Shown here in pieces: positions 2,051 to 39,503 of a DNA stretch of 39,647 nt; position 1 is the stretch's first letter; each line of letters opens with the position of its first letter. The position numbers and the translations under genes are program-made. Under the pieces are notes generated by a model. It did not search any database. It was not told the origin of the DNA and saw nothing but the letters and a program-made list of their open reading frames with translations. Source of the DNA: Spirochaetota bacterium (GTDB taxonomy: Bacteria; Spirochaetota; UBA4802; UBA5550); the NCBI GenBank assembly GCA_050298055.1, contig JBNKTL010000031.1:1-39647 (forward strand), written 5' to 3'.

Positions 2051-2310
2051 GAACCGGTGTTTGAATGTTTTAATAGATTAATAGATTATTCGCTTGACAT
2101 ATTTCCCCAATATAAAATATATGATATAATACACTATATTACCGTTCTATAGTATATATCATTTGTCATATATGTCATTATTTTTTTGATTTTTGGAAAT
2201 AAACCATATCTATTCTTTTACGGAAACATATTGGAATAAACACGGGATTGTATTACTTTTTGGAGAAAAAAACACAATTTTATATAAAGAATCGTTGTTG
2301 GCGGGTACCC
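2051..2310 (+). promoter_or_regulatory. Repeated promoter/operator/leader module, copy 1 (upstream of acyl-CoA dehydrogenase operon)
   Basis: TTGACA 2094-2099, TATAAT 2125-2130, operator ATTACCGTTCTATAGT 2138-2153, AAACCATATCTA, CACGGGATT, GGGTACCC 2303-2310. Similarity to copy 6 extends upstream to 1968. Confidence 0.85.
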
Positions 2311-2541
2311 ATGTGAAAATTGCAACCTTCATAAAAAATATTCAGGTATGCGCCTTAATGATATTGAGTGGTGTCAGCTTTGGCAATTCCGCAGGAGTAA
2401 CCGGTGTGAGGTTCATCATCTTTAAAATGAAGAAAAGAAATTTTGAAAACAGTTTCGCTACCCTCTGTGTGGGAGGCGATATAGGTACTGCTGTCGTTAT
2501 TGAAGTATAGTTTTAAATAAAAAAAGTAATAGGAGAAAAAA

Positions 2542-4401
2542 ATGGCGCTTAATCCACTTGTTGATTCCCGGGATACTAGGTTTGTTTTATTTGAATTACT
2601 GGAAATTGATAACCTGACAAAATATGAAAAATTTTCAGAATTTGACAGAGACACTTTTCAGGCTGTTATACAATTGGCCGAACAAATAGCTGTGAATAGG
2701 ATCTATCCTGCCAATGCTGAAGCTGATAAAATCGGCGCTCACTATAATCCGGAGGATAAAACCGTTACAGTTCCTGAAATATATCATACAGTTTTAGCTA
2801 TTGTTAATGAAGCAGGTTTTCCAGGACTCTGTAACGATCCCCGCTGGGGAGGGATGGGAATGCCCGATGTTATTCATCGAACAGTTTTGGAATACTTTTA
2901 TGCTGCAAGCGTGTCCTTTACCATGAATGTTTCTCTCAGTATCGGCGCAACAAATCTTGTTAAAAATTATAGTGAGCATCCTCAACGGGACATGATCCTT
3001 GAAAAAATGATTGCCGGTGAATGGGGAGGTACCATGTGTCTTACCGAGCCCGAAGCAGGTTCCGATGTTGGAGCGTTAAAGACGAAGGCGGTAAAACAGG
3101 CTGACGGTACATATCTTATTACCGGCCAGAAGATATTCATCTCTGCCGGTGAAAATGATTTATATGAAAATATCATCCATCCTGTGCTTGCCCGTATCGA
3201 AGGGGATCCCCCCGGGACAAAGGGGATATCAATATTTTTTGTACCCAAAATCCGTATTAATCCTGACGGATCCCCGGGGGAACCCAACGATGTTGTCTGT
3301 TCGGGAATTGAACATAAAATGGGACTTAAGGCTTCACCTACCTGTACGCTGAATTTCGGTGACAACGGCGCCTGTGCCGGGTGGCTTATGGGAGAACAGG
3401 GAAAAGGTATGAAGATTATGTTTCAGATGATGAACGAAGCCCGTCTCGATGTTGCCGTGCAGGGGCTGGGGGTTTCCAGTTCAGCCTATATGCACGCCGT
3501 CACCTATGCCAGAAACAGGATACAGGGGAGCCTCATCGGGGCAAAGGGAGAGCCGGCCCGGATCATCCGGCATCCTGACGTGAAGAGAATGCTCATGTGG
3601 ATGAAGTCCCATGTTGAGGCCATGAGGATGGCTTCAATGCTTGGCGCTTACCTTACAGATGTAATACACAATGATACAGGTGAAAAGGCAGAAGAAGCAA
3701 AGGCATTGCTTGAACTGCTTATACCAGTTTGCAAGGCCGGCAACACAGACATGGCATGGCTTATCACAGCCGAAGCGATATTGGTCCACGGGGGGTACGG
3801 TTATTGTTCAGACTATCCCGTGGAGCAGCTGGCAAGGGATTCCAAGATACTGGCCATATATGAAGGAACAAACGGCATTCAGTCCATGGATCTTACCATG
3901 AGGAAACTCCTCCTGAATCCCGGGATGTATAATTACGCGGTTTTTAAAAAACGGGTCCGGGAAATAACGGATACAGCCGCCGGTATAGTCGATGAAAAAT
4001 ACGTTAAAACCGTTGAGACAGGGGTGGAAAAAATGGATGAGGTGATAGCGTATCTCGGTAAAATGCTCAATACCGGAAGGATTGATGAAATACTTGAGCA
4101 GGCAGTACCCCTCCAGCAGTCATTCAGGATGCTGGTTTATGCCTGGCTGCACCTCTGGTCAATGACAAAAACAGTTCCGGCCCTTAAGGGAATAGCCGGG
4201 GATATATCAGGAGATAAGGTTGAAGCTCTTGTAAAGGATAATGACGAAGCCGCTTATTATCACGGAAAGATCCTTGCCTCACGCTTTTATCTCGGTTCAG
4301 AGTTTAAAAAGTATTTCGGCAATATTGACAATATTTTGTCTGGAGAAACAGCCCTCACGGAAACTCCGGAACACGTTTTTACCGGCGCTCCCGAAGAGTA
4401 G
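2542..4401 (+). CDS. Acyl-CoA dehydrogenase (long ~600-aa type)
   Basis: GTMCLTEPEAGSDVG, GQKIFIS, EHKMG, HGGYGY, IYEGTNGIQ motifs; AGGAG RBS. Confidence 0.95.
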   Translation: MALNPLVDSRDTRFVLFELLEIDNLTKYEKFSEFDRDTFQAVIQLAEQIAVNRIYPANAEADKIGAHYNPEDKTVTVPEIYHTVLAIVNEAGFPGLCNDPRWGGMGMPDVIHRTVLEYFYAASVSFTMNVSLSIGATNLVKNYSEHPQRDMILEKMIAGEWGGTMCLTEPEAGSDVGALKTKAVKQADGTYLITGQKIFISAGENDLYENIIHPVLARIEGDPPGTKGISIFFVPKIRINPDGSPGEPNDVVCSGIEHKMGLKASPTCTLNFGDNGACAGWLMGEQGKGMKIMFQMMNEARLDVAVQGLGVSSSAYMHAVTYARNRIQGSLIGAKGEPARIIRHPDVKRMLMWMKSHVEAMRMASMLGAYLTDVIHNDTGEKAEEAKALLELLIPVCKAGNTDMAWLITAEAILVHGGYGYCSDYPVEQLARDSKILAIYEGTNGIQSMDLTMRKLLLNPGMYNYAVFKKRVREITDTAAGIVDEKYVKTVETGVEKMDEVIAYLGKMLNTGRIDEILEQAVPLQQSFRMLVYAWLHLWSMTKTVPALKGIAGDISGDKVEALVKDNDEAAYYHGKILASRFYLGSEFKKYFGNIDNILSGETALTETPEHVFTGAPEE

Positions 4402-4478
4402 AAATCGGGCAGTAATATAACAAAACCTATTTTTCAAGCCCCCTCCGGGGGTTGGAAACTGTTAAAGAGGTGTCTGCC

Positions 4479-5945
4479 ATGGCGATGAAAACACCGCAGG
4501 AATACATTAAGAGTTTAAGACAACTTGACCTCGTTGTTTATATGTTCGGAAAAAAACTGGATGATGTTGTGGATGATCCAATTATCAGACCTTCACTAAA
4601 TGCCGTTGCCATGACGTATTCAATGGCAAAAGACCCGAGGTTTGAAGATATTATGACGGCTACATCGCATATTACCGGGAAAAAGATCAACCGTTTTACC
4701 CATATCCATCAAAGTGCCGATGACCTGGTAAAGAAAAGTAAAATGGGCCGGCTGCTTGGAGCTCACACGGGCTGCTGCTTTCAGCGGTGTGTAGGAATGG
4801 ACGCCCTGAACGCCCTTTCCATGACCACGTACGATATTGATCAAAAATTCAACACCGGTTACAACAGGCGGTTTTTAAAATACCTGGAATATGTGCAGGA
4901 AAACGATCTTGTCTGTGACGGTGCCATGACCGATCCCAAGGGAGACAGATCGTTGCCGCCTCACAAACAGGCTGATCCCGACATATTTCTCCATGTTGTT
5001 GACGAAAGAGAGGAGGGTATCGTTGTACGGGGTGCCAAGGCTCACCAGACCGGAGCAGTCAACTCCCATGAAGTTATTGTCATGCCCACGATAAGTATGA
5101 AGGAAGAGGACAAAGACTATGCTCTTTCCTTTGCTGTTCCCAGTAATACCGAAGGTATTACATATATTATGGGGCGCCAGTCCTGTGACACAAGGAAGCT
5201 TGAAAAAGGAAGGATCGACCAGGGAAATGCAAACTTTGGAGGCCATGAAGCCCTGATTGTTTTTGATGATGTATTTGTACCCTGGGAAAGGGTATTCATG
5301 TATAAGGAATATGATTTTGCGGGACAGCTGGTTGAACGCTTTGCGTCATACCACAGGCAGAGTTATGCATGCAAAGTCGGCGTTGGTGACGTCCTTATCG
5401 GCGCCACACAGACTGCGGCAGAGTATAACGGAGCAGCGAAGGCATCTCACGTAAAAGATAAAATTATAGAGATGAACCAGCTTAATGAGACCCTCTACTG
5501 CGGGTCTATTGCCTGTGCAAGCGAAGGGCACAGGGAGCCCAGCGGCACCTATTATGTTGATCCCCTTCTGGCAAATGTTCACAAACAGAACGTAACACGG
5601 TATCCCTATGAGATAGCACGTCTCGCGCAGGATATTGCAGGGGGACTGATGGTGACCCTCCCTTCAGAAGGGGACCTGAACTCCCCGGAAGTCGGGGACC
5701 TGGTGAAAAAATACCTGAAAGGCGCAGGTGATGTACCCATGGAAAACCGCATGCGAATCCTCAGGCTTATTGAAAATATTACCATGGGGACGGCGGCGGT
5801 GGGCTACCTGACAGAGTCAATGCATGGAGCCGGTTCACCCCAGGCACAGAGAATTATGATCTCACGGCTTGTTGATATGGACGGCAAAAAGAAGGCTTCA
5901 AAAAAGCTTTCAGGTATTAAAGAAGATGAAGTAGACAGAAAATAA
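4479..5945 (+). CDS. abfD: 4-hydroxybutyryl-CoA dehydratase / vinylacetyl-CoA isomerase (HpaB family, [4Fe-4S]/FAD)
   Basis: CFQRCVGMDA, YHRQSYACKVG (Cys/His cluster ligands), GAMTDPKGDRS, TESMHGAGSPQAQ. Start set at ATG 4479 behind GAGG. Confidence 0.88.
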   Translation: MAMKTPQEYIKSLRQLDLVVYMFGKKLDDVVDDPIIRPSLNAVAMTYSMAKDPRFEDIMTATSHITGKKINRFTHIHQSADDLVKKSKMGRLLGAHTGCCFQRCVGMDALNALSMTTYDIDQKFNTGYNRRFLKYLEYVQENDLVCDGAMTDPKGDRSLPPHKQADPDIFLHVVDEREEGIVVRGAKAHQTGAVNSHEVIVMPTISMKEEDKDYALSFAVPSNTEGITYIMGRQSCDTRKLEKGRIDQGNANFGGHEALIVFDDVFVPWERVFMYKEYDFAGQLVERFASYHRQSYACKVGVGDVLIGATQTAAEYNGAAKASHVKDKIIEMNQLNETLYCGSIACASEGHREPSGTYYVDPLLANVHKQNVTRYPYEIARLAQDIAGGLMVTLPSEGDLNSPEVGDLVKKYLKGAGDVPMENRMRILRLIENITMGTAAVGYLTESMHGAGSPQAQRIMISRLVDMDGKKKASKKLSGIKEDEVDRK

Positions 5946-5970
5946 TTCATTTTAGACAATACCCGGGGAG

Positions 5971-6867
5971 ATGATATATATACCTCGAAAACAAAAAGTT
6001 AAGAGAGCACTTGTTGTGGAAGGGGGCGGTATGCGGAGTGTTTTTTCCGCAGGCGTTCTCAATGCTTTCGCGTATAAAGGTTTTGATCCTTTCAACCTGT
6101 ATATCGGTGTTTCTGCGGGAGCATGTAATCTTGCTTCTCACCTGGCTGGCCAGTTCGACAGGAATTTTGACATAACCATGGCTTACTCAATTACACGGCA
6201 GTTTATCAATCCATGGCGCTTTCTGGCAATGGGGCACTATATGGACCTGGATTGGCTGTGGGATGTAACAATCAGGGAATACCGCCTTGATCTTAAAAGG
6301 TTATTTGGAAAACTCAAAAAAGAACATAAGCATTTTATTGTTACAGCAACATCCATGCTGAATGGCAAGGCCATGTATCTTGTTCCCAATGAGAATACAC
6401 TGGAACATTACCTGAAAGTATCCAGTTCACTTCCTCTGTTTTACCGGAAAATACTGTATGTTGACAATGAACCCGCCACCGATGGTGGTATCGCCGATTC
6501 CATTCCGGTAATGGAAGCAATACACCGCGGTGCGACGGATATAACCGTCATTCGTTCACGGTCATCAGCTTATATTAAAAAACGAAACAGCTTTTCATTT
6601 ATTTATGGTCTGGTTTTCAGGAAATATCCGCATATTGCGGATGCCATGAAGAAGAGGTATGCAAATTACATGGCTGCTGTGGAGGTCATAAAAAACCCTC
6701 CCCGGGGAGTCAATATTGATGAGATTTCACCCCCCGATGATATTTTTATTGGCAGGACCACTCAAAATAAAGAAACACTGCTGAAAACATATAATACCGG
6801 CAGGAATTATGGAAATAAATATATGGAAGATAAACTGAAGACTCTAAATCAGAGTAAACTGGTATAA
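5971..6867 (+). CDS. Patatin-like phospholipase family protein
   Basis: EGGGMR glycine loop, GVSAG nucleophile elbow, DGG catalytic Asp motif. Confidence 0.9.
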   Translation: MIYIPRKQKVKRALVVEGGGMRSVFSAGVLNAFAYKGFDPFNLYIGVSAGACNLASHLAGQFDRNFDITMAYSITRQFINPWRFLAMGHYMDLDWLWDVTIREYRLDLKRLFGKLKKEHKHFIVTATSMLNGKAMYLVPNENTLEHYLKVSSSLPLFYRKILYVDNEPATDGGIADSIPVMEAIHRGATDITVIRSRSSAYIKKRNSFSFIYGLVFRKYPHIADAMKKRYANYMAAVEVIKNPPRGVNIDEISPPDDIFIGRTTQNKETLLKTYNTGRNYGNKYMEDKLKTLNQSKLV

Positions 6868-7442
6868 AATGTTAATTGATAATTTTCCATCCATGATCTC
6901 AATTCCCTGTTGAATCTCTCCGCCCGTAGTCCCAGAAACCAGCGGAGAGGCTGGGGGTGGGAGGGAAAGAATTGAATGGGGGGAAGAGCCGAACAGAGGA
7001 TATGACGGACCCGGTAACGGTTTTTCAAAAGTTCCCTTACATTGTCCATCATCTTTATCCACTCCCCAGGATCCGTTCCCGAAGTGATATCGTTCACCCC
7101 CAGGGAGATAAGAGCAATATCAAAGATTTCCGGTGATCTTTTCTCCAGGTGTTTAATAGTACCGGCGGTTTTGCCCCCTGTTTTTGCAATGATCTTCCAC
7201 TGGACGGTATAGTTCTTTTCCAGGTTACTCACGATCCTGTAAGAAAGGGCCATCTCCTGGTGTGAAACACCCACACCTACCGCCGCAGAATCACCCATTA
7301 TCAAAAGTCGCAGAATTTCTCCGTTTCCCTTCTCCCCCTCCCTGGCTCCGGCAGGCTCAGGAAGGCGGGGGGTGACCCTCCTCACATAGAGCTCCTGGAT
7401 AAGCAGCAGGGGACCCAGGATTATTTTTATCAAATTTTCCAT
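6849..7442 (-). pseudogene. SGNH/GDSL hydrolase, C-terminally truncated paralog of 23442..24161
   Basis: GDSAAVGVG and LGVND are present. Similarity to the intact copy ends at RELRSW, so the catalytic DGFHP motif is missing. Start set at ATG 7442. Confidence 0.8.
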
Positions 7443-7982
7443 TATTTTATCCCTGGAATTTTCTTGTTTGTATATATACCAAAAGTGTTGCCCAATCTCT
7501 TGAGCCTTCACCCGCGTGGATAGTAACAAAAAAATATTCAAAGAGAACTAATTATTTTAATCCCGTAAAATGCGCTCAATATAACCAAAAATCCAAGAAA
7601 TGCTTCTGTCATTATATGTGCCCCTATTTTAAATGTTAAAGAGATAATCTCAGTATTTTTTATGCATATTTGTACATAAAGATCTGGTTCTGGTTCATTA
7701 AGTCGCAATATTTTTCAATCATCAATAATATTATTCACACAATTGCTTGAAGAATAACACGAAAAGAGCCGTAAATACTCAGTTATGGAAAGATAATCTC
7801 TGATCACATGTATTACAATATCCCCTCTATTTGAAACATTCACAGTACCGCTACAAGGATTAGCCAGTTATTATGGTGTTTTTGGGAATAGAACAGGTTC
7901 AGGACCGTATATTTCCGGGCATCCACATCCGGTTGCAAACTGACTGCCGGTCCTCTTAACATGTCATCCCTTGCACCTGCAT

Positions 7983-8180
7983 AAATGTTTTAATAAAATA
8001 ATCGCTTGACATATATGCCATATATTCTATAAGTAGTATAATACAGATAATTATCGTTCTATAGTATAAATCTTGTTCAATATATAAAATATTTGTAGGT
8101 CTATGGAAATTAACCATATCCAACCTGCTGCATAAACATATGAGAATTTACACGGGATTATATTACTCTTGGGAGAGAAT
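7983..8180 (+). promoter_or_regulatory. Repeated promoter/operator/leader module, copy 2 (upstream of ene-reductase/methyltransferase operon)
   Basis: TTGACA 8006-8011, TATAAT 8037-8042, ATTATCGTTCTATAGT 8050-8065, AACCATATC, CACGGGATTATATTACTCTTGGGAGA. Confidence 0.85.
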
Positions 8181-8191
8181 ACAGAAATGAT

Positions 8192-8225
8192 AAAGAATGA
8201 ACCGCCAGGGCCGTTCATTCTTTTT
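8192..8225 (+). terminator. Terminator-like hairpin in the leader of the ene-reductase gene
   Basis: AAAGAATGAAC 8192-8202 pairs with GTTCATTCTTT 8213-8223 and ends in a T run. The stem is AT-rich. Confidence 0.4.
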
Positions 8226-8289
8226 GGTATAAAACAGGCAAAACAATTGTCTTAACAAAAAAAGATCACATTAAAAAAGGAGGAATAAA

Positions 8290-9708
8290 ATGTCAAAAAC
8301 GCCAAAAAATCTGGATATCAGTCCCATATTCCAGCCAGTCAGGATCAATAAGCTTGAAATAAAAAATAGAATCGCAATGTCCCCGATGAATTGTAATTAC
8401 ACGGATCCGGAGCATTATATCAGCCGTCAGCAGATGGCCTACTATGCAGCAAGGGCAAAGGGGGGAACTGGTCTGATCATCACCGAGGCCCAGGCGGTTT
8501 CAGAACACCCTGTTGCGGACACATACCGCAAATACAACAACCCCTACCTTACTAACTATAAATATGTCCCCACACAGTCTAATTTTGTGGAACATGTCCA
8601 CAGCTTCGGGGCAAAAGTTTTCGCACAACTATTTACCGGGCCTGGCAGGCAGGGCAGCAATGATCTCGGCGCCGCAGATGTTGTTGCCGCTTCCGCCATA
8701 CCCTGGGAGTCCCAGATTAATAAAATCATCAATGGTGTAACAGATGACGTTATAAAAGCTGCCTCCCGCACAGCAGGATATCATGGTGAAATACCACCCT
8801 TATCTGAATTCAATAGATTTATGGAATTCGCAAAAAAAATTCCAAGTCTTCATTTGGTGGGGCAAAAGCCAAGAGAAATTACAAAAGAAGAAATTAAAAT
8901 ACTGGTGAAAGACATGGGGAAGGGGGCTAAAATCGCCAAAATGTGCGGCTACGACGGGGTCGAAGTACATGCCTGCCATGGCTACCTGGTACATACCTTT
9001 TTGTCAGATCGATCGAACACCCGGAAAGACGAATATGGCGGTAGCTTTGAAAACAAGATTCGCTTTATGCTGGAGTTGATTCGTTCCGCAAGACGTGCGG
9101 TGGGTCCGGATTACCCGGTGGGTGTCCGTTTCAGTGCCTCTGAAGATCTGCCTGGGGGATATGATGCTGAAACAGCGGCAAAAATAGCGAAACGATGTGA
9201 AGAAGAGGGTGCGGACTTCATTAATCTTTCCCATGGATCTTATGAAGCCATGAGTGATTTTTTACCAAACGGAGAAGGTGAAGTGATCGACAAAGCTGCA
9301 ATCATAAAATCCGCGGTAAAAATCCCTGTTATGTGTCCTTCGGTTCACGAACCGGAAAATGTCGTGGATGTGCTCAAAAACGGGAAGGCCGATATCGTGC
9401 AGCAGGGCAGACAGCAGATTTGTGATCCGGACTGGGTTAATAAAGTCATGAACCGTCAGTTTGATGATATCATTAAATGCACACGCTGCAACCGGGGATG
9501 TATTCTGCGATTTGTGGGCATGCTGCCCGTTCGCTGCATCCGAAACCCCCGGACCGGCCAGGAAGAGTTTATCGATGAATATATGAAACGGCCGGTTCTT
9601 CCTATCAGGCAGAAAGTCTGGCATGAAATTCAGGAACTGACGGAAAAAAATCCTTCTGAAGTCTGGGAATATACGGAAGAAGAATTAAAAGAAGCCGTCG
9701 AATCCTGA
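8290..9708 (+). CDS. NADH:flavin oxidoreductase (OYE-like TIM barrel with [4Fe-4S] motif), paralog 1
   Basis: KNRIAMSPM, RAKGGTGLIITE, EVHACHGYL, RKDEYGGSFENKIRF, CTRCNRGC-x11-C; AGGAGG RBS. Confidence 0.92.
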   Translation: MSKTPKNLDISPIFQPVRINKLEIKNRIAMSPMNCNYTDPEHYISRQQMAYYAARAKGGTGLIITEAQAVSEHPVADTYRKYNNPYLTNYKYVPTQSNFVEHVHSFGAKVFAQLFTGPGRQGSNDLGAADVVAASAIPWESQINKIINGVTDDVIKAASRTAGYHGEIPPLSEFNRFMEFAKKIPSLHLVGQKPREITKEEIKILVKDMGKGAKIAKMCGYDGVEVHACHGYLVHTFLSDRSNTRKDEYGGSFENKIRFMLELIRSARRAVGPDYPVGVRFSASEDLPGGYDAETAAKIAKRCEEEGADFINLSHGSYEAMSDFLPNGEGEVIDKAAIIKSAVKIPVMCPSVHEPENVVDVLKNGKADIVQQGRQQICDPDWVNKVMNRQFDDIIKCTRCNRGCILRFVGMLPVRCIRNPRTGQEEFIDEYMKRPVLPIRQKVWHEIQELTEKNPSEVWEYTEEELKEAVES

Positions 9709-9753: not shown

Positions 9754-9887
9754 GGATCCCGGCGGAACAGTTAAGGTCATGATAGGGGGAAGCGTTACCG
9801 ACGAGACCCTCAGGGAAGAAATAGGGGCCGATTTTTACGGTGCTGACGCCACCGCGGCAGTGGATCGCACGGGAGGTGTATGTTTGA
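9754..9887 (+). pseudogene. 3' remnant of corrinoid protein gene
   Basis: Nearly identical to 26146..26281 (DPGGTVKVMIGGSVTDETLREEIGADFYGADATAAVD). Has a 2-bp deletion (GTGGATCGCAC vs GTGGACATCGCAC) and no 5' part. Confidence 0.9.
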
Positions 9888-11007
9888 TATGAATGCGAAA
9901 GAAAGAATTGATGCTGTAATTGCTCTGGAACAGCCGGACCGGGTCCCGGTGGCGCCGATGCTTGACCATTTCGCTGCTACCTATACCGATTATACGAACG
10001 CGGAAATCATGAGTGACGGCGAGAAGAGAATTGAAGCGGTCCTTAAAACGGCAAAGGAGTTGGGACCATGGGACATGACTTTTCTTGCGGATCCGGCGAA
10101 TGCCAGGTTGTTGAAATTAGGTGTTCCTTTGAAATTGAAACAGCCCGGTATTGAACTGCCGGATAACGAAATACACCAGTTTGATGAAAAAGAGTTATTG
10201 ACGCCTGATGATTACGACCTCCTTGAACAGGTCGGGGCAATTGGATTCATACAGAATATTTTTGTCCGTAATTACCCCGAGATGAATGGACCGGATGGGA
10301 TACAGGAGATATTGCACAGCAGGGAGGAGTATAAGAAACATTCTTCGCTGGTGATGCAGGAAGGTATTGAAGTTGCTGCCGGTTTTATGCACCCGGGGAT
10401 GCTGTATGATTATTTTTCCTTCGGGAGAGGCATTACGGCTATGAGCGCGGATACCTTTAAACTGGGGGATAAAATAATTTCCGCCAGTAAAGTATGGGCG
10501 GAAGGGACGGCTCAAATAGCCATAGATGCCGCACTGGACGCAAACGTTCCGAGAGTTTTTATCGGTATGGCCCGGTCGTCGCCGGAGTTTATCTCACAGA
10601 AGAATTTCGAAAGATTGGTTCTTCCGGAACTGAGTTATTATGTAAAATCCTTTACTGATGCCGGTATAACCCCGTTGTTCCATTGTGACACCAACTGGAC
10701 GAAATTTCTTGAAATATTCAAGAGTTTTCCGGCAGGCAAGTGCATTATGATGCTGGATAGTAAAACCGACATCTTTAAAGCGAAGGAAATACTGAAAGGA
10801 CATATGTGCATCATGGGGGATGTGCCTGCGGAACTGTTGGCCAAGGGATCGCGGGATGACGTCTTATCTTATTGCAAGAGGCTTATTGATATTGTCGGCA
10901 AGGATGGCGGTTTCATCCTTTCATCCGGCTGTTCGATTCCGGCAAATGCGAAGATAGAGAACGTACGGGCGTTAATGGAGTCGGCTGAAGAATGGGGCCG
11001 GTATTAG
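9880..11007 (+). CDS. UroD/MtaA-CmuA family corrinoid methyltransferase (MT1-like), paralog 1
   Basis: QPDRVPVAP, LFHCDTNW, TDIFKAKEILKGHMCIMGDVP, GFILSSGCSIP. Coupled to the corrinoid remnant and an AcsE-like gene. Confidence 0.88.
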   Translation: MFDMNAKERIDAVIALEQPDRVPVAPMLDHFAATYTDYTNAEIMSDGEKRIEAVLKTAKELGPWDMTFLADPANARLLKLGVPLKLKQPGIELPDNEIHQFDEKELLTPDDYDLLEQVGAIGFIQNIFVRNYPEMNGPDGIQEILHSREEYKKHSSLVMQEGIEVAAGFMHPGMLYDYFSFGRGITAMSADTFKLGDKIISASKVWAEGTAQIAIDAALDANVPRVFIGMARSSPEFISQKNFERLVLPELSYYVKSFTDAGITPLFHCDTNWTKFLEIFKSFPAGKCIMMLDSKTDIFKAKEILKGHMCIMGDVPAELLAKGSRDDVLSYCKRLIDIVGKDGGFILSSGCSIPANAKIENVRALMESAEEWGRY

Positions 11008-21086: not shown

Positions 21087-21701
21087 CTATCTATAGTTTC
21101 TTATCCCATTCAGAGAAAAATTATATATGTAATTGACCATATCTTCTATTGAATATTTCCCCTTTGGGTTAAACCATATTCTCGACCGGGCGATGATTGA
21201 AGCTATACTGTATACAGTTATCTTTTCATCAACCGGAGAAAATATGCCCCTGGCAATCCCCCTTTGTATTATTGCCGTGCCGATATCATCATACTCATCT
21301 CTCAAACCGATAATTATTCTTCTGTTTGCCGGCAATAGATTATTCAGTCCAACATCAAAAAGAAGTTTTGAAGAGCTCATCTCTCCCAGGGTATGAGTTA
21401 AATGGACTTTGATCATTGTATAGAGGGCGTCTTCAGGGTTTATGCTGTCATTGTCTTTAAGGTGCCTTATGGGGATCAGTATATCCAGCATCTCTTCCTT
21501 GAGAATCTCAAAAAGAATTGTTTCTTTGTTCTTGAAAAAATTATAGATATTTGCAGGTCTGAACTTGCATGAATTGGCAATATCCCTCATGCTGGTTTCC
21601 GCGTACCCTTTTTCCCAGAAAAGCATCCGGGATTTGGTAAGAATCTTCGCCTGCTGGGTCTTCCATTCATTTTTCTTTATAATAACAGCACCTGTTGTCA
21701 T
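21087..21701 (-). CDS. TetR/AcrR family regulator, KstR2-like C-terminal domain
   Basis: LFWEKGYAETSMRDIA...ANIYNFFKNKETIL HTH; RDEYD...IIQRGIARGIF...WFNPKG. Start set at ATG 21701 because the longer ORF runs through the promoter. Confidence 0.9.
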   Translation of the reverse strand: MTTGAVIIKKNEWKTQQAKILTKSRMLFWEKGYAETSMRDIANSCKFRPANIYNFFKNKETILFEILKEEMLDILIPIRHLKDNDSINPEDALYTMIKVHLTHTLGEMSSSKLLFDVGLNNLLPANRRIIIGLRDEYDDIGTAIIQRGIARGIFSPVDEKITVYSIASIIARSRIWFNPKGKYSIEDMVNYIYNFSLNGIRNYR

Positions 21702-21745
21702 GATTATATGTCTGTATGTACTAATGAACAATTGATAAATAATAA

Positions 21746-21865
21746 TACAATACAATACATTATCGTTCTATAGTGTCAATCATTTTTATTAATAATATAT
21801 AATTTTTTGCTTTATAGAGATTGACCATATCTAATTCTTTACTAAAACATTTAGGAATATACAAT
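21746..21865. promoter_or_regulatory. Repeated module, copy 3 (partial), overlapping the TetR gene promoter
   Basis: TACAAT 21746-21751, N7, ATTATCGTTCTATAGT 21759-21774. Minus-strand TTGACA at 21779-21774 points to tetR with the operator in its spacer. ACCATATCTAATTCTTT-AAACAT-GGAATATAC follows. Confidence 0.85.
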
Positions 21866-21917
21866 TGAAAAATGGGGGCGTTATTAGGATAACTAAATAA
21901 AGATTAATAAGTGATCT

Positions 21918-21971
21918 CATGCAGGGGACTCCCTGATAACAGAAAATCGTTTGCACGCATTCATATGAACT
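21918..21971. repeat. ~55-bp repeat, copy A (copy B 25050..25102)
   Basis: CATGCAGGGGACTCCCTGATAACAGAAAATCGTTT vs CATGCAGGAAATTCCCTGTCAGCAGAGAATCGTTT. Confidence 0.7.
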
Positions 21972-22122
21972 TTATTTTGTCCTCCGGAATGCAGCTTGAC
22001 TTTACGCCAAATATCGGGAGTGTATCTTTAAATGATAAGCACTGAGTGTTGAAATTTTCAGTTTATACCATATACTTGCGATAACCATTGAGTTTGCTAT
22101 TTATAATATTATCAGGAAAGAA

Positions 22123-25020: not shown

Positions 25021-25049
25021 TCCGTTGCAAATTTCCTTCCATATCCTCG

Positions 25050-25102
25050 CATGCAGGAAATTCCCTGTCAGCAGAGAATCGTTTAAAATATTCAGATAAA
25101 CT
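25050..25102. repeat. ~55-bp repeat, copy B
   Basis: Aligns with 21918..21971. Confidence 0.7.
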
Positions 25103-25161
25103 GTAGTATATTGACTATTTGATTAACATATCACCCGGATGCCAGACATAGGATGTAGGCC

Positions 25162-25313
25162 TGCACCCGAATGACCATCACAGGAAACGGCTCTATCACA
25201 GGGTTTCGTTCTACTGTATCTGCTCACCCCATCTCACATGGATGTAACAGTTCTATGACTGGTTCTTTCCCGGGAGTGTCATTCGCTACTCCTGGAAATA
25301 TAATCGTTTATAA
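25162..25313. repeat. ~150-bp non-coding repeat, copy B
   Basis: Aligns with 1803..1953; both lie just upstream of a module copy. Confidence 0.85.
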
Positions 25314-25335
25314 CCTGTCGTCCCTTACCGCTGTC

Positions 25336-25576
25336 TGAATGTTATAATAGATTATTCTCTTGACATATTTCTTGAATATAAATATGAAGTATAATACTAT
25401 ATATTATCGTACTATAGCGTCAATACTTTTATTGCATATGTCATATTTTTTTAATTTTCTAGATTAAACCATATTTAGTCTTTTTATTACAAAATACGGG
25501 AATATAAACTGAATTATATCACTCTTGGGAAAAAATAATGTAAATATTAATAATGAACTGTGGTCTGCGGGTACCC
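25336..25576 (+). promoter_or_regulatory. Repeated module, copy 4 (upstream of corrinoid protein-MT1 operon)
   Basis: TTGACA 25360-25365, TATAAT 25390-25395, ATTATCGTACTATAGC 25403-25418 then GTCAA, AAACCATAT, ACTCTTGGGA, GGGTACCC 25569-25576. Confidence 0.85.
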
Positions 25577-25645
25577 TTATGGAAATTATAACGTGCATTA
25601 AATTTGTTCACTTTTGGCATAAGAAAAATTTAGGAGAGTTGTATT

Positions 25646-26281
25646 ATGAAAGAAAAATTTGACGAACTGAGCAGAGCACTGCTTGAACTTGAGGAGGATA
25701 ATGTCTTCGAAAAAGTGGATTTACTGCTTTCGGAAAAAGGTGAACCCATGGAGATCATTAGCGCGTTGATCGCCGGCATGGAAGATGTGGGAAAACGTTT
25801 CAAAGCGGGTGACTACTTTTTGAGCGAACTGATATATTCCGGGGAGATATTCAAGCAGGCTATGGATAAGGTCAGACCGCTGTTGGGGGATAAACAGAAT
25901 GAACTTTCCAGGGGTAAGGTGATAATCGGGACGGTAAAAGACGACATCCATGATCTGGGGAAAAATATAGTAATCACCATGCTGGAATGCGCCGGTTACG
26001 AGACTATTGATCTCGGCGTGGACGTGCCTCCTGAAAAATTCACCGATGCGATTAAATCATCCGGGGCTTCGCTGGTGGGTTTGAGCCTGCTCCTGACAAC
26101 AGGATACGATTCTTTAAGGAAATGCGTGAAAGCGATAAAGGAATCGGATCCCGGCGGAACAGTCAGGGTCATGATAGGGGGAAGCGTTACCGACGAGACC
26201 CTCAGAGAAGAAATAGGGGCCGATTTTTACGGCGCTGACGCCACCGCGGCAGTGGACATCGCACGGGAGGTGTATGTTTGA
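25646..26281 (+). CDS. Cobalamin-binding (corrinoid) protein, MtbC/MetH B12-binding type
   Basis: Cap domain GMEDVGKRF...YFLSEL, DIHDLGKNIV (DxHxxG), DLGVDVPPE, SLLLT, MIGGS. Confidence 0.95.
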   Translation: MKEKFDELSRALLELEEDNVFEKVDLLLSEKGEPMEIISALIAGMEDVGKRFKAGDYFLSELIYSGEIFKQAMDKVRPLLGDKQNELSRGKVIIGTVKDDIHDLGKNIVITMLECAGYETIDLGVDVPPEKFTDAIKSSGASLVGLSLLLTTGYDSLRKCVKAIKESDPGGTVRVMIGGSVTDETLREEIGADFYGADATAAVDIAREVYV

Positions 26282-27401
26282 TATGAATGCAAAAGAAAGA
26301 ATTGATGCTGCAATTGCTCTGGAACAGCCGGACCGGGTTCCTGTGGCGCCATTGCTTGACCATTTTGCCGCTACCTATTCCGGATATTCCAATGCGGAAA
26401 TCATGAGTGACGGCAATAAGAGAATCGAAGCGGTCCTTAAAACGGCAAAGGAGTTGGGACCATGGGACATGACTTTTCTGGCGGATACGGCGAATGCCAG
26501 ACTTTTAAAAATCGGTGTCCCGATGAAATTGAAACAGCCCGGTAGTGAACTGTCGGCTAATGAAATACACCAGTTTGATGAAAAAGAATTATTGAAGCCT
26601 GATGATTACGACCTCCTTGAACGGATAGGGGTTAAGAGATTCATGTTGAATGTTCTTGGACGTAATTACCCTGAGTGGAAAGGTTTGAAGGCGTTACCCC
26701 CTTTCATCGGTATCATAAGGGAATATAAAAAACATGCCCGTTTAGTAATGAAGGAAGGCATTGAAGTTGCAGCCGGTTTTATTCATCCGGGGGCGTTATA
26801 TGAGTATTTTTCCTTTGGGAGGAGCATTTCAGGTATCAGCGCGGACACTTTTAAGCTGGGTGATAAAATAGTATCTGCCGGAAAACTATGGGCGGAGGAT
26901 ACGGCTGATACTTTCATACGGATTGCCAGGTACGTAGGTGTCCCCAGGATTTTTATCGGTATGTCCAGGGAATCACCGGAATATATTTCAAAGAAGAATT
27001 TCGAAAGATTGGTCCTTCCCGGACTGAGTTATTTGGTAAATAGATTTATTGATGCCGGCATAACGCCGTTGTTGCATTGTGATACAAACTGGACGAAGTT
27101 TCTGGAAATCTTCAAGGATTTCCCTGCCGGCAAGTGCATTCTTGACCTGGATAGTAAAACCGACATCTTTAAAGCGAAGGAAATACTGAATGGGCATATG
27201 TGCATCATGGGAGATGTGCCTGCGGAACTGCTTGTCAGGGGTTCACGTGATGATGTGTTATCTTACTGCAAAAGGCTTATCGATATTGTCGGTAAGGGTG
27301 GCGGCTTCATTCTTTCATCCGGTTGTTCGATTCCGGCAAATGCGAAGGTTGAGAACGTGCGGGCAATAATGGAATCGGTTGAGAAATGGGGCCGTTATTA
27401 G
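26274..27401 (+). CDS. UroD/MtaA-CmuA family corrinoid methyltransferase (MT1-like), paralog 2
   Basis: Same length and motifs as 9880..11007; start overlaps the corrinoid gene stop. Confidence 0.88.
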   Translation: MFDMNAKERIDAAIALEQPDRVPVAPLLDHFAATYSGYSNAEIMSDGNKRIEAVLKTAKELGPWDMTFLADTANARLLKIGVPMKLKQPGSELSANEIHQFDEKELLKPDDYDLLERIGVKRFMLNVLGRNYPEWKGLKALPPFIGIIREYKKHARLVMKEGIEVAAGFIHPGALYEYFSFGRSISGISADTFKLGDKIVSAGKLWAEDTADTFIRIARYVGVPRIFIGMSRESPEYISKKNFERLVLPGLSYLVNRFIDAGITPLLHCDTNWTKFLEIFKDFPAGKCILDLDSKTDIFKAKEILNGHMCIMGDVPAELLVRGSRDDVLSYCKRLIDIVGKGGGFILSSGCSIPANAKVENVRAIMESVEKWGRY

Positions 27402-27557
27402 GATAACGAAATAAATACTAATTACCGGCGACAGAGCTCTCATTGGACATCCGTAATACATGGAAGCATAAGTGCTGATGTGACACATATGGACAGGACT
27501 TTCAATTTATCTTTATCTATAATCAGGAGCCCTATCCTATAGATGAATGGACACTAT

Positions 27558-28643: not shown

Positions 28644-29056
28644 TTTGATAAAACGTCATTTTTTTGTTTGTTATGCAGGTATTAACTGTAGTTTAAATAC
28701 AACCATAATAAAAACAGTAAGCTTTTCACATGGGTTCCAGGTATACAGAATATATTGAAAAAGCTGGTCTCCTGATAAAGTCAACAAATCCGCAATTCTC
28801 TCTTACTTTTTGTGTAAAATAACATACCGAAATAACAGGTCGTCGTCAAACTCCTTTTTATACATATCCGTTATAAATTGAGTATCGTTATTACACCTGC
28901 TTTAACTTCTATGTTGTTTATCCTCTTTTGTGTTAATCTCTATAAGCAACAGTATAGGTTTTTCTGTTTTCAAATTTAAATGTAATTCTCCAGTTACTAT
29001 TTATCCAGTAAACCATATGTCTACAGCCATCATTACCCATGAGAAAAGTGCCAGAG

Positions 29057-29255
29057 GAACCGGTGTTTGAATATTTTAATAGATTATTCGCTTGACATAT
29101 CCATCAAATATCGTATGTGTTATATAATACAAAACATTATCGTTCTATAGTGATAATTGCATATGTTATATTTTTTTAATTTAGAAATAAACCATATCTA
29201 TTCTTTAAATGAAACATATGTGAATATACACGGGATTGTATTATAGTGTGGAAAA
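29057..29255 (+). promoter_or_regulatory. Repeated module, copy 5 (upstream of ene-reductase relic and amidohydrolase)
   Basis: GAACCGGTGTTTGAAT, TTGACA 29092-29097, TATAAT 29123-29128, ATTATCGTTCTATAGT 29136-29151, AAACCATATCTATTCTTT, CACGGGATTGTATTA. Confidence 0.87.
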
Positions 29256-29337
29256 ACATAGTATTCACAATACCGGCTACCACCGCTGAGCAATTGTGAA
29301 ACAAACTGAACGAAGTTAAATGAAAGGTGATAACTGA

Positions 29338-29481
29338 AATGTGGTGAATGTATTAAAAGAAGGCAAGGCCCGGATGGTTCTTCAGGGGCGTTAGCAGATT
29401 GCCACGGATTTTGGAGGCAAGAAATTATCCAGGACATTTGAATACGCTGAAGGTGAATTTGAAGAATTCATGAAGCGCTAA
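29338..29481 (+). pseudogene. Relic of a third OYE-like oxidoreductase
   Basis: Translates NVVNVLKEGKARMVLQGR*QIA...SRTFEYAEGEFEEFMKR*. This matches NVVDVLKNGKADIVQQGRQQIC and the tail SEVWEYTEEELKE of the intact paralogs. In-frame TAG at 29392-29394. Confidence 0.8.
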
Positions 29482-30651: not shown

Positions 30652-30768
30652 CTCATCATGGATCTAAACTGAATTATTCAAATGGTGAATTATATTCTGG
30701 ACCGAGGTGAACCGATGAACTACCATCGATGTCACCTGTCGTTACGGTACAAGAGAAAAGTGACAACG

Positions 30769-31019
30769 GAACCGGTGTTTGAATGTTTTAATAGATTAAT
30801 CACTTGACATTTATATCCAATTGTAGATATATTGTATAATACTGAAAGTTATCGTTCTATAGTCATGATATGATTTATTGTATATATATTATTCATTTTA
30901 GATCTATGGGGCTTACCCGTATCTAATTTTTTAGTGAAACATGCGGGAATGTGCACTGGATTGTTTTTCTCTTGGGAGAAAACAGAAAGATTATATTGAA
31001 TCACGGACGGTGGGTACCC
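30769..31019 (+). promoter_or_regulatory. Repeated module, copy 6 (upstream of acetoacetate-CoA ligase)
   Basis: TTGACA 30804-30809, TATAAT 30835-30840, GTTATCGTTCTATAGT 30848-30863, CTCTTGGGAGA, GGGTACCC 31012-31019. Similarity to copy 1 extends upstream to 30686. Confidence 0.85.
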
Positions 31020-31218
31020 TTGTGTATAGGGTGAAAAGAAATAGAGATTAACCGGCCTCCAACAAGCCAAAAGAAAATATTGTATCGTTCATTAAAATTA
31101 TTCAATATTGACATCGGGTTATCGGGAATGATACTCCTTTATTAAAAACCGCTCCTATGAATATTGTTTTCTGTCATCCGGAAACGGTTTAATGTTTTAT
31201 ATAAGCGAGGTAACTGTT

Positions 31219-36682: not shown

Positions 36683-36696
36683 TTATCATTTGTTAA
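36683..36696. promoter_or_regulatory. Putative Crp/Fnr-family binding site
   Basis: Minus-strand TTAACAAATGATAA between the Crp gene stop and the oxidoreductase start (74 bp upstream), at class II activator distance from TATTAT. Confidence 0.55.
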
Positions 36697-36717
36697 TTTG
36701 GGATGTTTTTTGGGAAA

Positions 36718-37257: not shown

Positions 37258-37293
37258 TGCGAAAACCTGTAATAATATTTTATAAAGAACTTC

Positions 37294-39015
37294 TCATCTC
37301 GCCTGCTTTGTTATCCCTTCATCTAATATTTTTTTGGATATTGCTAATATCTCCTTAGCATCATAACCGCATTCATGCACCAGCCATGCGCCGTATTCAG
37401 CCATTCCCATCAACAAATGTGCAGTTCCATAACAATCAAATTTTTTATTGATAATCCCTGCTTTTTGCATATTTTCAAGATCATGTGCAATTGGCGTGAT
37501 GATTTTATTCAAGACATCCTTGAATTTTTCTTTTATCAATTCATTGTCAGTAACTGTGGCTGAGTAGCGGATGAGATTCATCATCTCTGCCCATTTAGGG
37601 TACGATTGGATGAAAGCATCTCCACGTTTAATGATTCGTTTTCTCAAATCACGTTCATCTTTAATTTCATGCCATACATGATTATACATCTGATTCATTG
37701 CTAAGTCTGCGCTGTTTATGAATAATTCGTCCTTGTTTTTAAAGTATGCATAAAAAGTGCCTTTGCCAATTTTTGCTCTGTTTACGATATCATCAATACT
37801 TGTATCTCTAAGTCCTTTTTCAATAAAAAGATCAATAGCGGCAGCCATTATACTATGTTGTTTCTTACTGGAGGCGACTATTGCATCGGCAGGTACTTTT
37901 TTGACGGGTAACTGTTTGAGATTTTTCTTTATTGATGAGAGTGACTGTCCTTCTTCTGTTTGAAGCATCTTTATTAATTTTAATCTGTTCAGGTGATCAT
38001 CGGTATAAACTGCCGATTTTGTTGAAGCTATTATCGGCTGGGGGAGTAAATGCTGGTTTATATAATACCTGATAGTGGTTGCGGGAGTAGATGCTTTTTT
38101 TGAAAGTTCTGACATTTTATAATAATTGGTAACATTATCTACAGGGGCAGTTTTGGGATTGCTTTGCGCATATTGATGGTTGATTGTGCCCGGTTTAAAA
38201 CCATGCACAAAGAGGTCAATTGAGGTTTCAATGAATTTGGTTTTTTCCGATTTTGTTTTACCTTTTAAATAATAAGTACCATATTCAGCGGATCCGATGA
38301 GCAAATGGGATATAATGAACGTATCAATTTTTTTGAATTTACCCTGATTAATGCCAGTCTCCAGGTCGTCAGTGACTGGTTTGGCCAGGTTGGATATGAG
38401 TAACTTTGTTCTCGCTTTATTGTGTGGCATGGCTGCCGGGGATATCCCGCGAGCAATATTAAGCATGTCGATAAAACGTCTGCTGACTGTTATAAAAAGT
38501 AAAGCTCGAAGTTTAATCCTTTGAATAGGATTTGAATCCTGTATGATTTGATCTGAATTATTGACAATGTCTGAACATACCTGGTCGGCGCAGTCAAAAA
38601 AAAGGTCTTCTTTATTGGAATAGTATTTATAGAAGGTATTATTGCTGATACCTGCCTTTTCGGTTATATCCCTTATGCTGATAGAGTCATATGCCTTGCT
38701 CCTGAACATATCAATTGCTGACAATTTAATATCCTGCTTCCTGTCTGACTGGGCGGGCAAAATTGATTTGTTTCCATCGCTTATGGCGGGGGAGTATTCG
38801 ACAATATTTTTTATTTCAACAAGTGATAATTTTCCCTTGCCCTGAAGTTTTTTAATGTTCTTCAATTGCATAATATGTTCTTTGTTGTAGTATGCCCGCG
38901 TCTTCCCTTTTTTGAGGGGTGGTGTGATTAATCCTTCCCTCAGGTAGAACCTGATAGTCGTAGGGGGTATTCCTGAAATGCTGGAAAGTTCGGAAATCGT
39001 TATATTATCTTTCAT
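37294..39015 (-). CDS. Tandem MerR-TetR-MerR-TetR transcriptional regulator
   Basis: Two MerR HTHs (ISELSSISGIPPTTIRFY; MSELSKKASTPATTIRYY) and two TetR HTHs (ISIRDITEKAGISNNTFYKYYSNKEDLF; TSIDDIVNRAKIGKGTFYAYFKNKDELF), each followed by a ligand domain. Confidence 0.88.
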   Translation of the reverse strand: MKDNITISELSSISGIPPTTIRFYLREGLITPPLKKGKTRAYYNKEHIMQLKNIKKLQGKGKLSLVEIKNIVEYSPAISDGNKSILPAQSDRKQDIKLSAIDMFRSKAYDSISIRDITEKAGISNNTFYKYYSNKEDLFFDCADQVCSDIVNNSDQIIQDSNPIQRIKLRALLFITVSRRFIDMLNIARGISPAAMPHNKARTKLLISNLAKPVTDDLETGINQGKFKKIDTFIISHLLIGSAEYGTYYLKGKTKSEKTKFIETSIDLFVHGFKPGTINHQYAQSNPKTAPVDNVTNYYKMSELSKKASTPATTIRYYINQHLLPQPIIASTKSAVYTDDHLNRLKLIKMLQTEEGQSLSSIKKNLKQLPVKKVPADAIVASSKKQHSIMAAAIDLFIEKGLRDTSIDDIVNRAKIGKGTFYAYFKNKDELFINSADLAMNQMYNHVWHEIKDERDLRKRIIKRGDAFIQSYPKWAEMMNLIRYSATVTDNELIKEKFKDVLNKIITPIAHDLENMQKAGIINKKFDCYGTAHLLMGMAEYGAWLVHECGYDAKEILAISKKILDEGITKQAR

Positions 39016-39263
39016 AAAAACACTCTTTAATTTATTAATAACCAGTTTTCAATATGTTGATAATCCTTTATTATGATCAAATTATTACAAAATGTATAAT
39101 GAGGGATAATGCTTTCAAGTCAATAAATAATAAATGAGAAATATTTTGAAAATAAATTGAATAAATCAGGTTCAAATTCCTGTTGTATGGATTCCCTCTG
39201 GTTGCAACGGTGTTAGTATATTAGTGAAAGACTTCGTTTAATATTGAGTATTTCTTACCCTTA

Positions 39264-39503
39264 TACCCGCTAATACTTCCAACTGTTACGAGTCACTCAA
39301 TAGTTACTTCGTTTACTCCCAGGAGTAATGTATCTCTGTGTGTATTTCAATGGGTATTGGTAAAGGATCAGGTATGGATAATTCTCATAAATCTGAAAAA
39401 TACCAAAAATTCAATAAAAAAGCTTGACACTATAAAACGATAATTAGTAGTATTATATTATATATGATTGCTTGGTTAATATGTCAAGTAAATAATTTAT
39501 TAC
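39264..39503 (-). promoter_or_regulatory. Repeated module, copy 7 (inverted), between the MerR-TetR gene and the thiolase
   Basis: Minus strand: TTGACA 39487-39482, TATAAT 39457-39452, ATTATCGTTTTATAGT 39444-39429, ATCCATACCT, ATTACTCCTGGGAG 39329-39316, GCGGGTA. Plus strand: TTGACA 39424-39429, N18, TAGTAT toward the thiolase. Confidence 0.85.

Follow-up and report, generated by a model that had tools for sequence, protein, structure and literature searches.

Similar upstream regions preceding non-paralogous genes of a single genome have been described as putative mobile promoters and viewed as a route to regulatory rewiring (PMC3575422). Their families are mostly pairs, average 92% identity, lie between -150 and -50 of the start codon and arise by a mechanism that is unknown; the underlying screen asked for 80% identity or more across a minimum of 50 nt, with the match inside that interval (PMC3575422). 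The same article also summarises promoter capture by citT of E. coli, a gene placed under another gene's promoter by rearrangement (Blount et al. 2012; PMC3575422). At the Borrelia erp loci, one conserved promoter, operator and leader heads diverse, co-expressed coding sequences, the loci being allelic on separate cp32 prophages and having a signal peptide in common (PMC10016077).

Here we analysed a 39,647-nt stretch of a Spirochaetota bacterium genome (the window), in which a first-pass annotation had noticed one non-coding module at the head of most catabolic units. As with putative mobile promoters, similar DNA lies upstream of non-paralogous genes (PMC3575422), the genes behind the copies belonging to different Pfam families. 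Unlike them, the module has nine older copies (about 60-76% identity) lying 240-430 nt upstream, its donor is identified, both of its faces are predicted to be used and its scars point to duplication and deletion. Measured against the mobile-promoter screen, some stretches reach 81% (M1/M5, over 91 nt) and 82% (M1/M6, over 115 nt) while whole-module pairs show 69-76% identity, and the 16-mer in each copy lies 240-429 nt before the forward start codon, outside the screened interval. The module works like a putative mobile promoter but falls outside that screen's definition. As with erp and its upstream homology box, one conserved promoter, operator and leader precedes diverse coding sequences (PMC10016077). 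Unlike the erp loci, the copies here lie in one chromosome region, have no coding sequence in common and head metabolic enzymes. The citT capture, which reportedly arose by tandem duplication, is a single laboratory event with measured expression, whereas here at least six natural, fixed events would have drawn on one donor.

In our judgement it is reasonably likely that the module is a two-way regulator/thiolase control region, present in nine copies, spread by local duplication and deletion and predicted to be under MerR-TetR control. A segment bearing the control region would have been duplicated locally and repeatedly; at each inferred capture, whatever separated the module from a new gene would have dropped out of the duplicated segment, and that gene could then be read from either module face. 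Genes now facing modules are predicted to be under MerR-TetR control. The features concerned are the following:

1686..1940, plus strand: SAM-methyltransferase gene, internally deleted, directly 5' of M1
1968..2344, plus strand: module M1 (TTGACA 2094, TATAAT 2125, 16-mer 2138-2153, leader; reverse -35 decayed)
2367..2504, plus strand: 3' stump of a deleted thiolase gene, separating M1 from the acyl-CoA dehydrogenase gene
2542..6867, plus strand: putative captured unit of acyl-CoA dehydrogenase, HpaB-fold gene and patatin (Pfam)
7957..8202, plus strand: module M2 (TTGACA 8006, TATAAT 8037, 16-mer 8050-8065)
8290-9708: ene-reductase OYE1, headed by M2
9754..9880, plus strand: 3' stump left from a corrinoid-protein gene, followed by UroD-family methyltransferase 1; shows 95% identity with 26146-26294
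21087..21701, minus strand: TetR-family gene that has been displaced from its operon and would now be read by the reverse face of M3
21721..21738, minus strand: decayed native TetR operator (TTAATG-N6-CATTAA in orthologues), right half alone recognisable
21736..21864, plus strand: partial module M3 (forward TTGACA lost; reverse TTGACA-16-TATTGT, 21779 to 21752, faces tetR)
21865..21908, plus strand: UroD-family gene stump (last codons), joined to the M3 leader and followed by the cyclase gene
25154..25298, plus strand: 3' end of the methyltransferase gene, present here a second time (in-frame stop) and brought along with M4
25311..25610, plus strand: module M4 (TTGACA 25360, TATAAT 25390, 16-mer 25403-25418; reverse TTGACG-16-TATAGT)
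29017..29256, plus strand: module M5 (TTGACA 29092, TATAAT 29123, 16-mer 29136-29151)
29334..29442, plus strand: OYE1-type ene-reductase gene reduced to an internal stump, with M5 before it and the amidohydrolase gene after it
30686..31024, plus strand: module M6, heading acetoacetate-CoA ligase (TTGACA 30804, TATAAT 30835, 16-mer 30848-30863)
37294..39015, minus strand: 573-aa MerR-TetR-MerR-TetR fusion regulator, candidate module binder (Pfam MerR_1 x2, TetR_N x2)
39253..39530, minus strand: module M7, by synteny and site conservation the native control region that separates the regulator gene from the thiolase operon (TTGACA 39487; 16-mer 39429-39444; reverse promoter TTGACA-18-TAGTAT, 39424-39453 on the plus strand)
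39529..39647, plus strand: start of the thiolase/ChsH2-OB-fold/ECH/ACAD/CoA-ligase/OYE/amidohydrolase operon, which continues past the window

All seven copies reported by the first-pass annotation were located, each with the 16-mer at 0-2 mismatches, on the plus strand in M1 to M6 (starting at 21759 in M3) and on the minus strand in M7. Two partial copies on contig C56 bring the total in the 4.7-Mb genome to nine, confined to 2 of 199 contigs. The core agrees with its earlier description: GAACCGGTGTTTGAAT, assigned to three copies, occurs exactly three times in the 4.7 Mb, every time inside a module, and the TTGACAT and TATAATAC blocks are exact in six of the seven copies, the 21.7-kb copy being partial, as described, without TTGACAT and with TACAATAC in place of TATAATAC. 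Farther downstream the blocks vary more than had been claimed (exact AACCATATC, CACGGGATT and GGGTACCC in 3/7 copies each, TACTCTTGGGA in 1/7), and the supposedly fixed spacing holds for the core, constant to 1 nt, but not for the leader, which varies by ~13 nt. The module pattern had no match in 121 other genomes of the same order, and BLAST of one module against 60 relatives likewise returned none.

Homology above chance extends beyond the core, as had been proposed. Leader-only alignments, from which the motifs were excluded, scored 44-121.5 for the 21 window pairs, whereas 3000 AT-matched intergenic controls had a mean of 13.1 (sd 9.2, maximum 44); over its ~115 nt the leader is thus common to the copies (z 3.4-11.8). 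Against 12 orthologous leaders the mean score was 12.6, equal to the null, indicating that the leader is not conserved in relatives. To judge from these alignments, the non-native copies share the M7 core and leader by descent. By synteny, the copy at 39.3-39.5 kb (M7) is the native one, since relatives carry the region once, at the same thiolase/MerR-TetR position: it is single-copy in G007, G024, G045 and G049, between the thiolase operon and MerR-TetR regulator genes, and synteny and site are conserved in these four genomes and in metagenome loci. MerR-TetR genes are divergent from the thiolase orthologue in 4/4 same-order genomes having that orthologue and in 12/21 metagenome loci, and orthologues of the thiolase operon are 77-91% identical in G007 and G049. 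The 16-mer lies directly 5' of GTCAA, as in G024 (13/16 matches) and G049 (12/16), while none of 1632 background GTCAA sites had 12 or more matches; agreement is weaker elsewhere (8/16 in G007 and L089, 3-6/16 in eight others). None of the five inner branches of the module tree was supported, so the order of copying is not given.

The genes downstream of the modules, earlier described as unrelated, are only partly so, several being accessory genes of one pathway. The orthologous operon elsewhere includes CoA ligase (L080) and corrinoid/UroD genes (L083). PDB matches were too distant to name a substrate.

The first-pass annotation had suggested that one regulatory cassette was copied in front of different genes, and both the donor region and deletion scars were found. 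Four module copies adjoin stumps of deleted genes (thiolase, ene-reductase, methyltransferases). The 1686..1940 frame matches an intact paralogue (C26:12378-13079) at its start and 3' end (50% over 62 aa, E 5.7e-17), and the thiolase stump matches the L010 thiolase (tblastn, 49% over 49 aa, E 2.9e-10). Orthologues of the M1 unit, whose HpaB-fold gene we take to be 4-hydroxybutyryl-CoA dehydratase-like, are 60-81% identical in L010 and L011, where they stand behind a TetR gene in an intact TetR-ECH-thiolase-ACAD operon. Judged against these two loci, M1 has replaced, at 2.1 kb, the TetR gene, the hydratase and most of the thiolase that they keep. In the same two loci the ACAD operon begins with an orthologue of the displaced 21.1-kb TetR gene (66% and 59%). 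The corrinoid stump is identical to 26146-26294 at 142/149 nt, the UroD stump to 27379-27422 at 39/44 nt and the methyltransferase copy at 25154..25298 to 1803-1953 at 121/152 nt; M4 itself heads a corrinoid protein and a UroD-family gene. The OYE stump beside M5 matches the OYE of L088 (53% over 36 aa, E 1.7e-4), where an intact OYE gene is followed by the amidohydrolase gene. No gene stumps were found beside M2 or downstream of M4 or M6. Strains about 90-95% identical to this one occur in X3 and X5, and a related strain appears to lack one module-bounded unit, the 6.1-kb M1 unit. The module is repeated and often adjoins remnants of lost genes, so many catabolic genes have likely come under one predicted regulator through duplication and deletion.

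Whether a regulon grew through short sites that emerged in situ or through copies of whole promoters is usually hard to see in nature because the traces decay. Promoter reuse is already known; in this case the donor, the scars and the outgroup state can all be made out. Within 50 kb one can read the donor, the single-copy state in relatives, the stumps, a displaced regulator with its half-lost operator and a strain without a unit, so that repeated promoter capture can be put to the test in a natural example. Since the process is of a known kind, its value is that of a clear example, not of a new system.

The first-pass annotation implied a TTGACA/TATAAT promoter, but a spacing of 24-25 nt in all six full copies rules the pair out as one canonical sigma-70 promoter. 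Spacers of this genome's promoters peak at 16-17 nt, with no enrichment at 24-25, and only M6 has an alternative forward pair (TTGACA-18-TATATT). In the reverse direction, M3, M4 and M7 carry promoters of canonical sigma-70 type by consensus match only (10/12 positions, spacers 16-18 nt), and the module is predicted to be bidirectional, with either face usable. The 16-mer would fill the spacer of these reverse promoters (21759-21774 in M3) and, in the forward direction, would overlap a start site 7 nt after TATAAT; both would be repressor positions. In the divergent control regions of tetR-tetA and merR-merT, opposed promoters overlap and an operator lies between the -35 and -10 elements; the opposed promoters here, with the 16-mer in the spacer, appear analogous.

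It is unlikely, in our estimation, that the copies are instead passive leftovers of segmental duplication, some of them perhaps plain promoters, with no common regulon. Identity among the leaders (59-76%) is similar to what co-duplicated genes show at their four-fold sites (66% and 69%); this accords with descent by copying but is also a neutral level that would suit such leftovers, as would a region rich in duplicated and broken genes and the loss of the orthologues' main operator. Against this, the 16-mer keeps 11/16 columns invariant even in copies with a decayed reverse -35, compared with 0/5 in the 5-nt gap beside it and 4/24 in the spacer, and the modules sit at the heads of units rather than at random sites. 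Across six copies, 25/30 motif columns are invariant versus 28/115 leader columns, a difference whose significance is overstated because the motif columns were picked after the alignment was inspected and the copies are non-independent. The reverse -35 is retained in 5/6 copies facing a gene start versus 0/3 not facing one (Fisher p 0.048, which overstates the case since module copies are not independent).

Under the MerR-TetR reading that we prefer, the 16-mer is probably bound by the fused MerR-TetR protein or by an unfused MerR-TetR pair further along C31, as gene order suggests. The two halves of the fusion cluster, though on long branches, with regulators A and B from orthologous loci, and its PDB matches cover the TetR part alone. 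MerR-TetR fusion regulators were not found described in a literature search, and the locus offers their first candidate operator and target set. A helix-turn-helix domain of MerR type, together with TAY repeats at a 5-bp period, recalls BldC-type binding to direct repeats (PMC5859096). Unlike the tetR, merR and BldC systems, the regulators here are MerR-TetR fusions, one a four-domain tandem fusion. A more ambitious version, which we regard as doubtful, would make the locus an integrase-free gene-capture platform: a portable two-way promoter would bound interchangeable gene units, gained and lost by strains as blocks, and a fast-evolving four-helix-turn-helix MerR-TetR-MerR-TetR protein with a changed recognition helix, having evolved together with the drifted site, would bind the 5-bp periodic array and drive the promoter with the 24-25-nt spacer. 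Classical MerR promoters have a shorter spacer, of 19-20 nt.

Somewhat harder to credit is a real regulon in which another protein (the 21.1-21.7 kb TetR, IclR or a global factor) reads the 16-mer. The 16-mer lies 57 nt before tetR, and it fits the MerR-TetR site-1 matrix poorly (-4.4 to +4.4 bits). None of the copies, M7 included, keeps site 1, the strong operator that follows the forward TTGAC in orthologues; what ties the module to MerR-TetR is thus its position and two close relatives, G024 and G049, whose MerR-TetR locus has a 16-mer-like site that argues against another binder. The 21.1-kb TetR in particular was rejected: TTAATG-N6-CATTAA, a different operator, lies upstream of 3/3 close orthologues having upstream DNA, without the 16-mer. 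Scanning the genome with the site-1 matrix showed no enrichment in the island, although its training sites had themselves served to seed the matrix by eye and the scan is no independent test; the site-1 pattern with its -35 occurs 0 times in G000 and 1-3 times in each of four relatives.

The first-pass annotation had also offered a non-autonomous element, and we consider it very improbable that the module is one or was moved by the island's rolling-circle transposase or integrase. A fragment of an IS91-family transposase occupies C31:52431-53375, an integrase relic adjoins a C56 copy, and one-ended transposition would give ragged ends; but both module ends vary among full copies (left -58 to -170, right +72 to +208), no TIR or TSD is common to the copies, stumps of flanking genes were duplicated along with the module, and transposase and integrase are both single-copy fragments. 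Genome-wide, only the nine copies were found, on two contigs, rather than the dispersed copies unlinked to gene starts that an ordinary MITE would give.

The suggestion that the leader is a conserved structured RNA, riboswitch or attenuator is largely refuted and barely credible: two of six leaders fold better than shuffles (z -2.29, -2.38), but the other four do not (z -1.11 to +1.78), RNAalifold gave no consensus pairs, an Rfam scan of the whole window had no match to E 1 and the 12 orthologous leaders show no conservation. Shared among copies yet absent from relatives, and without a common fold or fixed ends, the leader is neither a leader RNA nor a MITE. A coding origin is also disfavoured: six-frame searches, which covered the flanks, had no match inside the module, and 1-2-nt indels argue against a frame.

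No end overlap was found between C31 and C56, leaving a single tRNA-Arg island unproven. Misassembly was ruled out for junctions bridged by contigs, in a check that used X1, which may be the source sample; among the X1 pieces listed, none spans the whole of M6. Two joints that looked like rearrangements, 30800 to 29180 and 2102 to 8037, proved to be other module copies aligned there.

The recurring non-coding module described in the first-pass annotation was borne out at all seven positions. A profile built from the copies recovered them (M1-M7, in window order) at E 1e-15 to 1e-46 in the 4.7-Mb genome, together with two more partial copies on a second contig, C56 (E 7.6e-10 and 0.004); beyond these, the genome yielded no further match below E 0.27. 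The core pattern occurred at 9 sites in this genome; 121 further genomes of the order, all from other genera, gave no match. With motifs excluded, the 113-nt leader scored 44-121.5 over 21 window pairs, compared to a null of 13.1 +/- 9.2 (maximum 44), and the module was the sole intergenic repeat family with at least 5 members restricted to one contig. The downstream leader blocks that had been annotated were exact in only 1-3 of 7 copies. Public contigs of sequencing run X1, possibly the source sample itself, span M1 to the acyl-CoA dehydrogenase (ACAD) gene, M2, M3, M4, M5 and M7 with 0-6 differences, while ~95% identical strains from other studies span the tetR-M3 (run X5) and M6-ligase (run X3) junctions; since these junctions are bridged, an assembly artefact was ruled out as the cause of the layout. 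Elsewhere in the genome, at C7:118411, TTGACA is followed by a 14/16 match to the 16-mer where the other parts of the module are missing; this may simply reflect overlap with a TATACT -10. In addition, ~110-nt dispersed repeats are common to a cluster of 521 intergenic regions.

M7 is located between the MerR-TetR-MerR-TetR fusion gene and the thiolase operon. Among 121 genomes of the order, 4 hold a close orthologue of the thiolase, as do 21 metagenome loci. MerR-TetR genes were divergent from it in 4/4 genomes and at 12 metagenome loci, of which 3 repeat a locus already counted among the genomes; the other 9 metagenome loci were too short or distant (4) or had another gene or no usable upstream DNA (5). 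In the orthologous control regions a pair of TTGAC elements face opposite ways, separated by 60 nt in genomes G007 and G049 and by 52 nt in M7; a palindromic site (site 1) comes after the forward TTGAC. The 16 nt preceding the reverse TTGAC match the window 16-mer at 13 positions in G024 and 12 in G049 (background, 0/1632 at 12 or more), at 8 in G007 and locus L089, and at 3-6 in eight other loci. The control region is single-copy in G007, G024, G045 and G049, additional matches being short dispersed repeats within the leader; those of G007 and G049 (L062, L063) are unrelated to the ~110-nt repeats of the present genome. We consider it very probable that the copies descended from an M7-type region. 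Leader conservation was sought in 12 orthologues (96 pairs) and none was found (mean score 12.6). Since the leader is alike among the copies and not conserved in orthologues, sequence comparison indicates that it is common to them through descent in their own lineage, not cross-species function. The operon itself (L007:530-9554, or C31:39529-48553), encoding thiolase/ChsH2-OB-fold, enoyl-CoA hydratase, ACAD, CoA ligase, ene-reductase (OYE) and amidohydrolase, is conserved at 70-91% identity in many sediment-type loci, and its nearest solved thiolases are distant.

The spread of the module is best read as a form of promoter capture whose fossil record is unusually complete. Homology ends differ among full copies (left, -58 to -170; right, +72 to +208 of the 16-mer), with no shared terminal repeats at their module ends. 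An internally deleted methyltransferase precedes M1, its last 150 nt recurring with M4 at 80% identity, and a thiolase 3' end follows M1 (E 2.9e-10). Loci L010 and L011, titled as Spirochaetes and Leptospiraceae MAGs, share the order TetR, enoyl-CoA hydratase, thiolase and ACAD, followed by patatin (L010) or an HpaB-fold gene (L011); in the window the hydratase of such an operon was not found, no more than a stump of the thiolase is left, and the TetR gene, 19 kb off behind M3, retains just the right half of its own operator TTAATG-N6-CATTAA. Because M5 is followed by an OYE1-type stump and then the amidohydrolase, OYE1 proper sits after M2, and locus L088 keeps both genes intact and adjoining (89% and 73%), this arrangement suggests duplication with reciprocal loss. 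The M3 leader is fused with the terminal codons of a UroD-family gene (39/44 nt), and leader identity (59-76%) approximates four-fold-site identity of the duplicated UroD (77/117) and GDSL (54/78) genes. In run X5, a single contig (depth ~6, with ~200 bases unaligned) lacks the 6.1-kb M1 unit: there the glycosyltransferase end and the relic of the methyltransferase run on to M2-OYE1. Further observations in this region were as follows.

1500-8491: the related X5 strain appears without the 6.1-kb M1-ACAD-patatin-GDSL unit
Methyltransferase gene: the X3 and X5 strains bear a different deletion
6849-7541, minus strand: GDSL lipase copy, 3'-truncated relative to 23442-24161
9754-9900 and 26146-26294: 149-nt tract, 95% identical, possibly recent gene conversion; adjoining UroD-family genes, 81% only
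21915-21974 (M3 downstream) and 25047-25105 (M4 upstream): 60-nt non-coding stretch, 73% identical

The downstream genes had been read as unrelated to one another. This held for some, but several are members of the donor pathway at other loci, namely acetoacetate-CoA ligase (L080) and the corrinoid protein with the UroD-family gene (L083). The ACAD unit, tetR unit and cyclase would have been taken from other regulation or are without traced source. The module is a real feature whose first interpretation was partly supported.

The proposal that TTGACA and TATAAT form a canonical pair failed, their spacing being 24-25 nt in 6/6 full copies; across intergenic DNA of the genome, TTGACA-N-TAnnnT is commonest at spacings of 16 and 17 (86 and 107 counts), compared with 25-43 at 22-26. 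By consensus match only, canonical-looking promoters sit on the opposite strand in three copies, with the 16-mer inside each spacer:

M3, reverse: TTGACA-16-TATTGT, toward tetR
M4, reverse: TTGACG-16-TATAGT
M7, reverse: TTGACA-18-TAGTAT, toward thiolase

The reverse -35 was kept in M3, M4, M7 and both C56 copies, every one of which faces a gene start (tetR, DUF4405, thiolase, FadL-type porin and radical SAM gene), and had decayed in M1, M5 and M6, facing gene ends, and in M2, facing the truncated GDSL copy (p 0.048, for copies that are not independent). Among the six full copies, invariant columns, picked after the fact, numbered 6/6 in TTGACA, 8/8 in TATAATAC, 11/16 in the 16-mer, 4/24 in the spacer, 0/5 in the gap and 28/115 in the leader. 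Because a 5-bp periodicity of TAY triplets extends over TATAATAC and the 16-mer (one phase holds 31/59 in the copies and 17/20 in four orthologues), TATAATAC may be part of a predicted protein-binding array, not solely a -10. Joint regulation of the copies is likely.

We somewhat favor MerR-TetR as the binder of the 16-mer. None of the copies retains site 1, the site most strongly conserved among orthologues; on the site-1 matrix the 16-mer scored -4.4 to +4.4 bits. The regulator at 37294-39015 (minus strand) is a fast-evolving protein with four HTHs in which the two MerR-TetR paralogues are fused, its halves having long branches (0.89 and 0.68, versus 0.3 for the unfused pair, which lies at C31:48616-50331). 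Its first TetR domain reads GISNNTFY, a stretch we take to be the recognition helix; the first N is lysine in the other rows (25), except two from L088 with isoleucine or serine. A shift in specificity of the fused regulator is possible. Comparable fusions at L078 and L082 group with another clade; no paper on MerR-TetR fusion regulators was found, nor any literature on the locus itself.

With respect to known systems, the module works like promoter reuse (PMC3575422) but fails the position rule of that screen. The Borrelia erp loci (PMC10016077) have a similarly shared promoter/leader, but also prophage allelism and a shared peptide, both absent from these copies; BldC (PMC5859096) is an analogy only, for repeat binding.

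If C56 and C31 join, the nine modules may lie within one tRNA-integrated island; a contig overlap was looked for and not found. The 3' part of tRNA-Arg(TCT) with downstream DNA is present as a 92% identical copy at L007:12554-12672 (C31:51553-51671) and L008:6830-6947, and an integrase relic adjoins the C56 tRNA. Judging from titles of the best TetR matches only, a free-living spirochaete is the probable host; runs X3, X5 and X7 carry sediment-metagenome labels. Beyond the att-like site lie a single-copy IS91-family transposase fragment (L007:13432-14376) and, near it in AT-rich DNA, an excisionase-like HTH frame.
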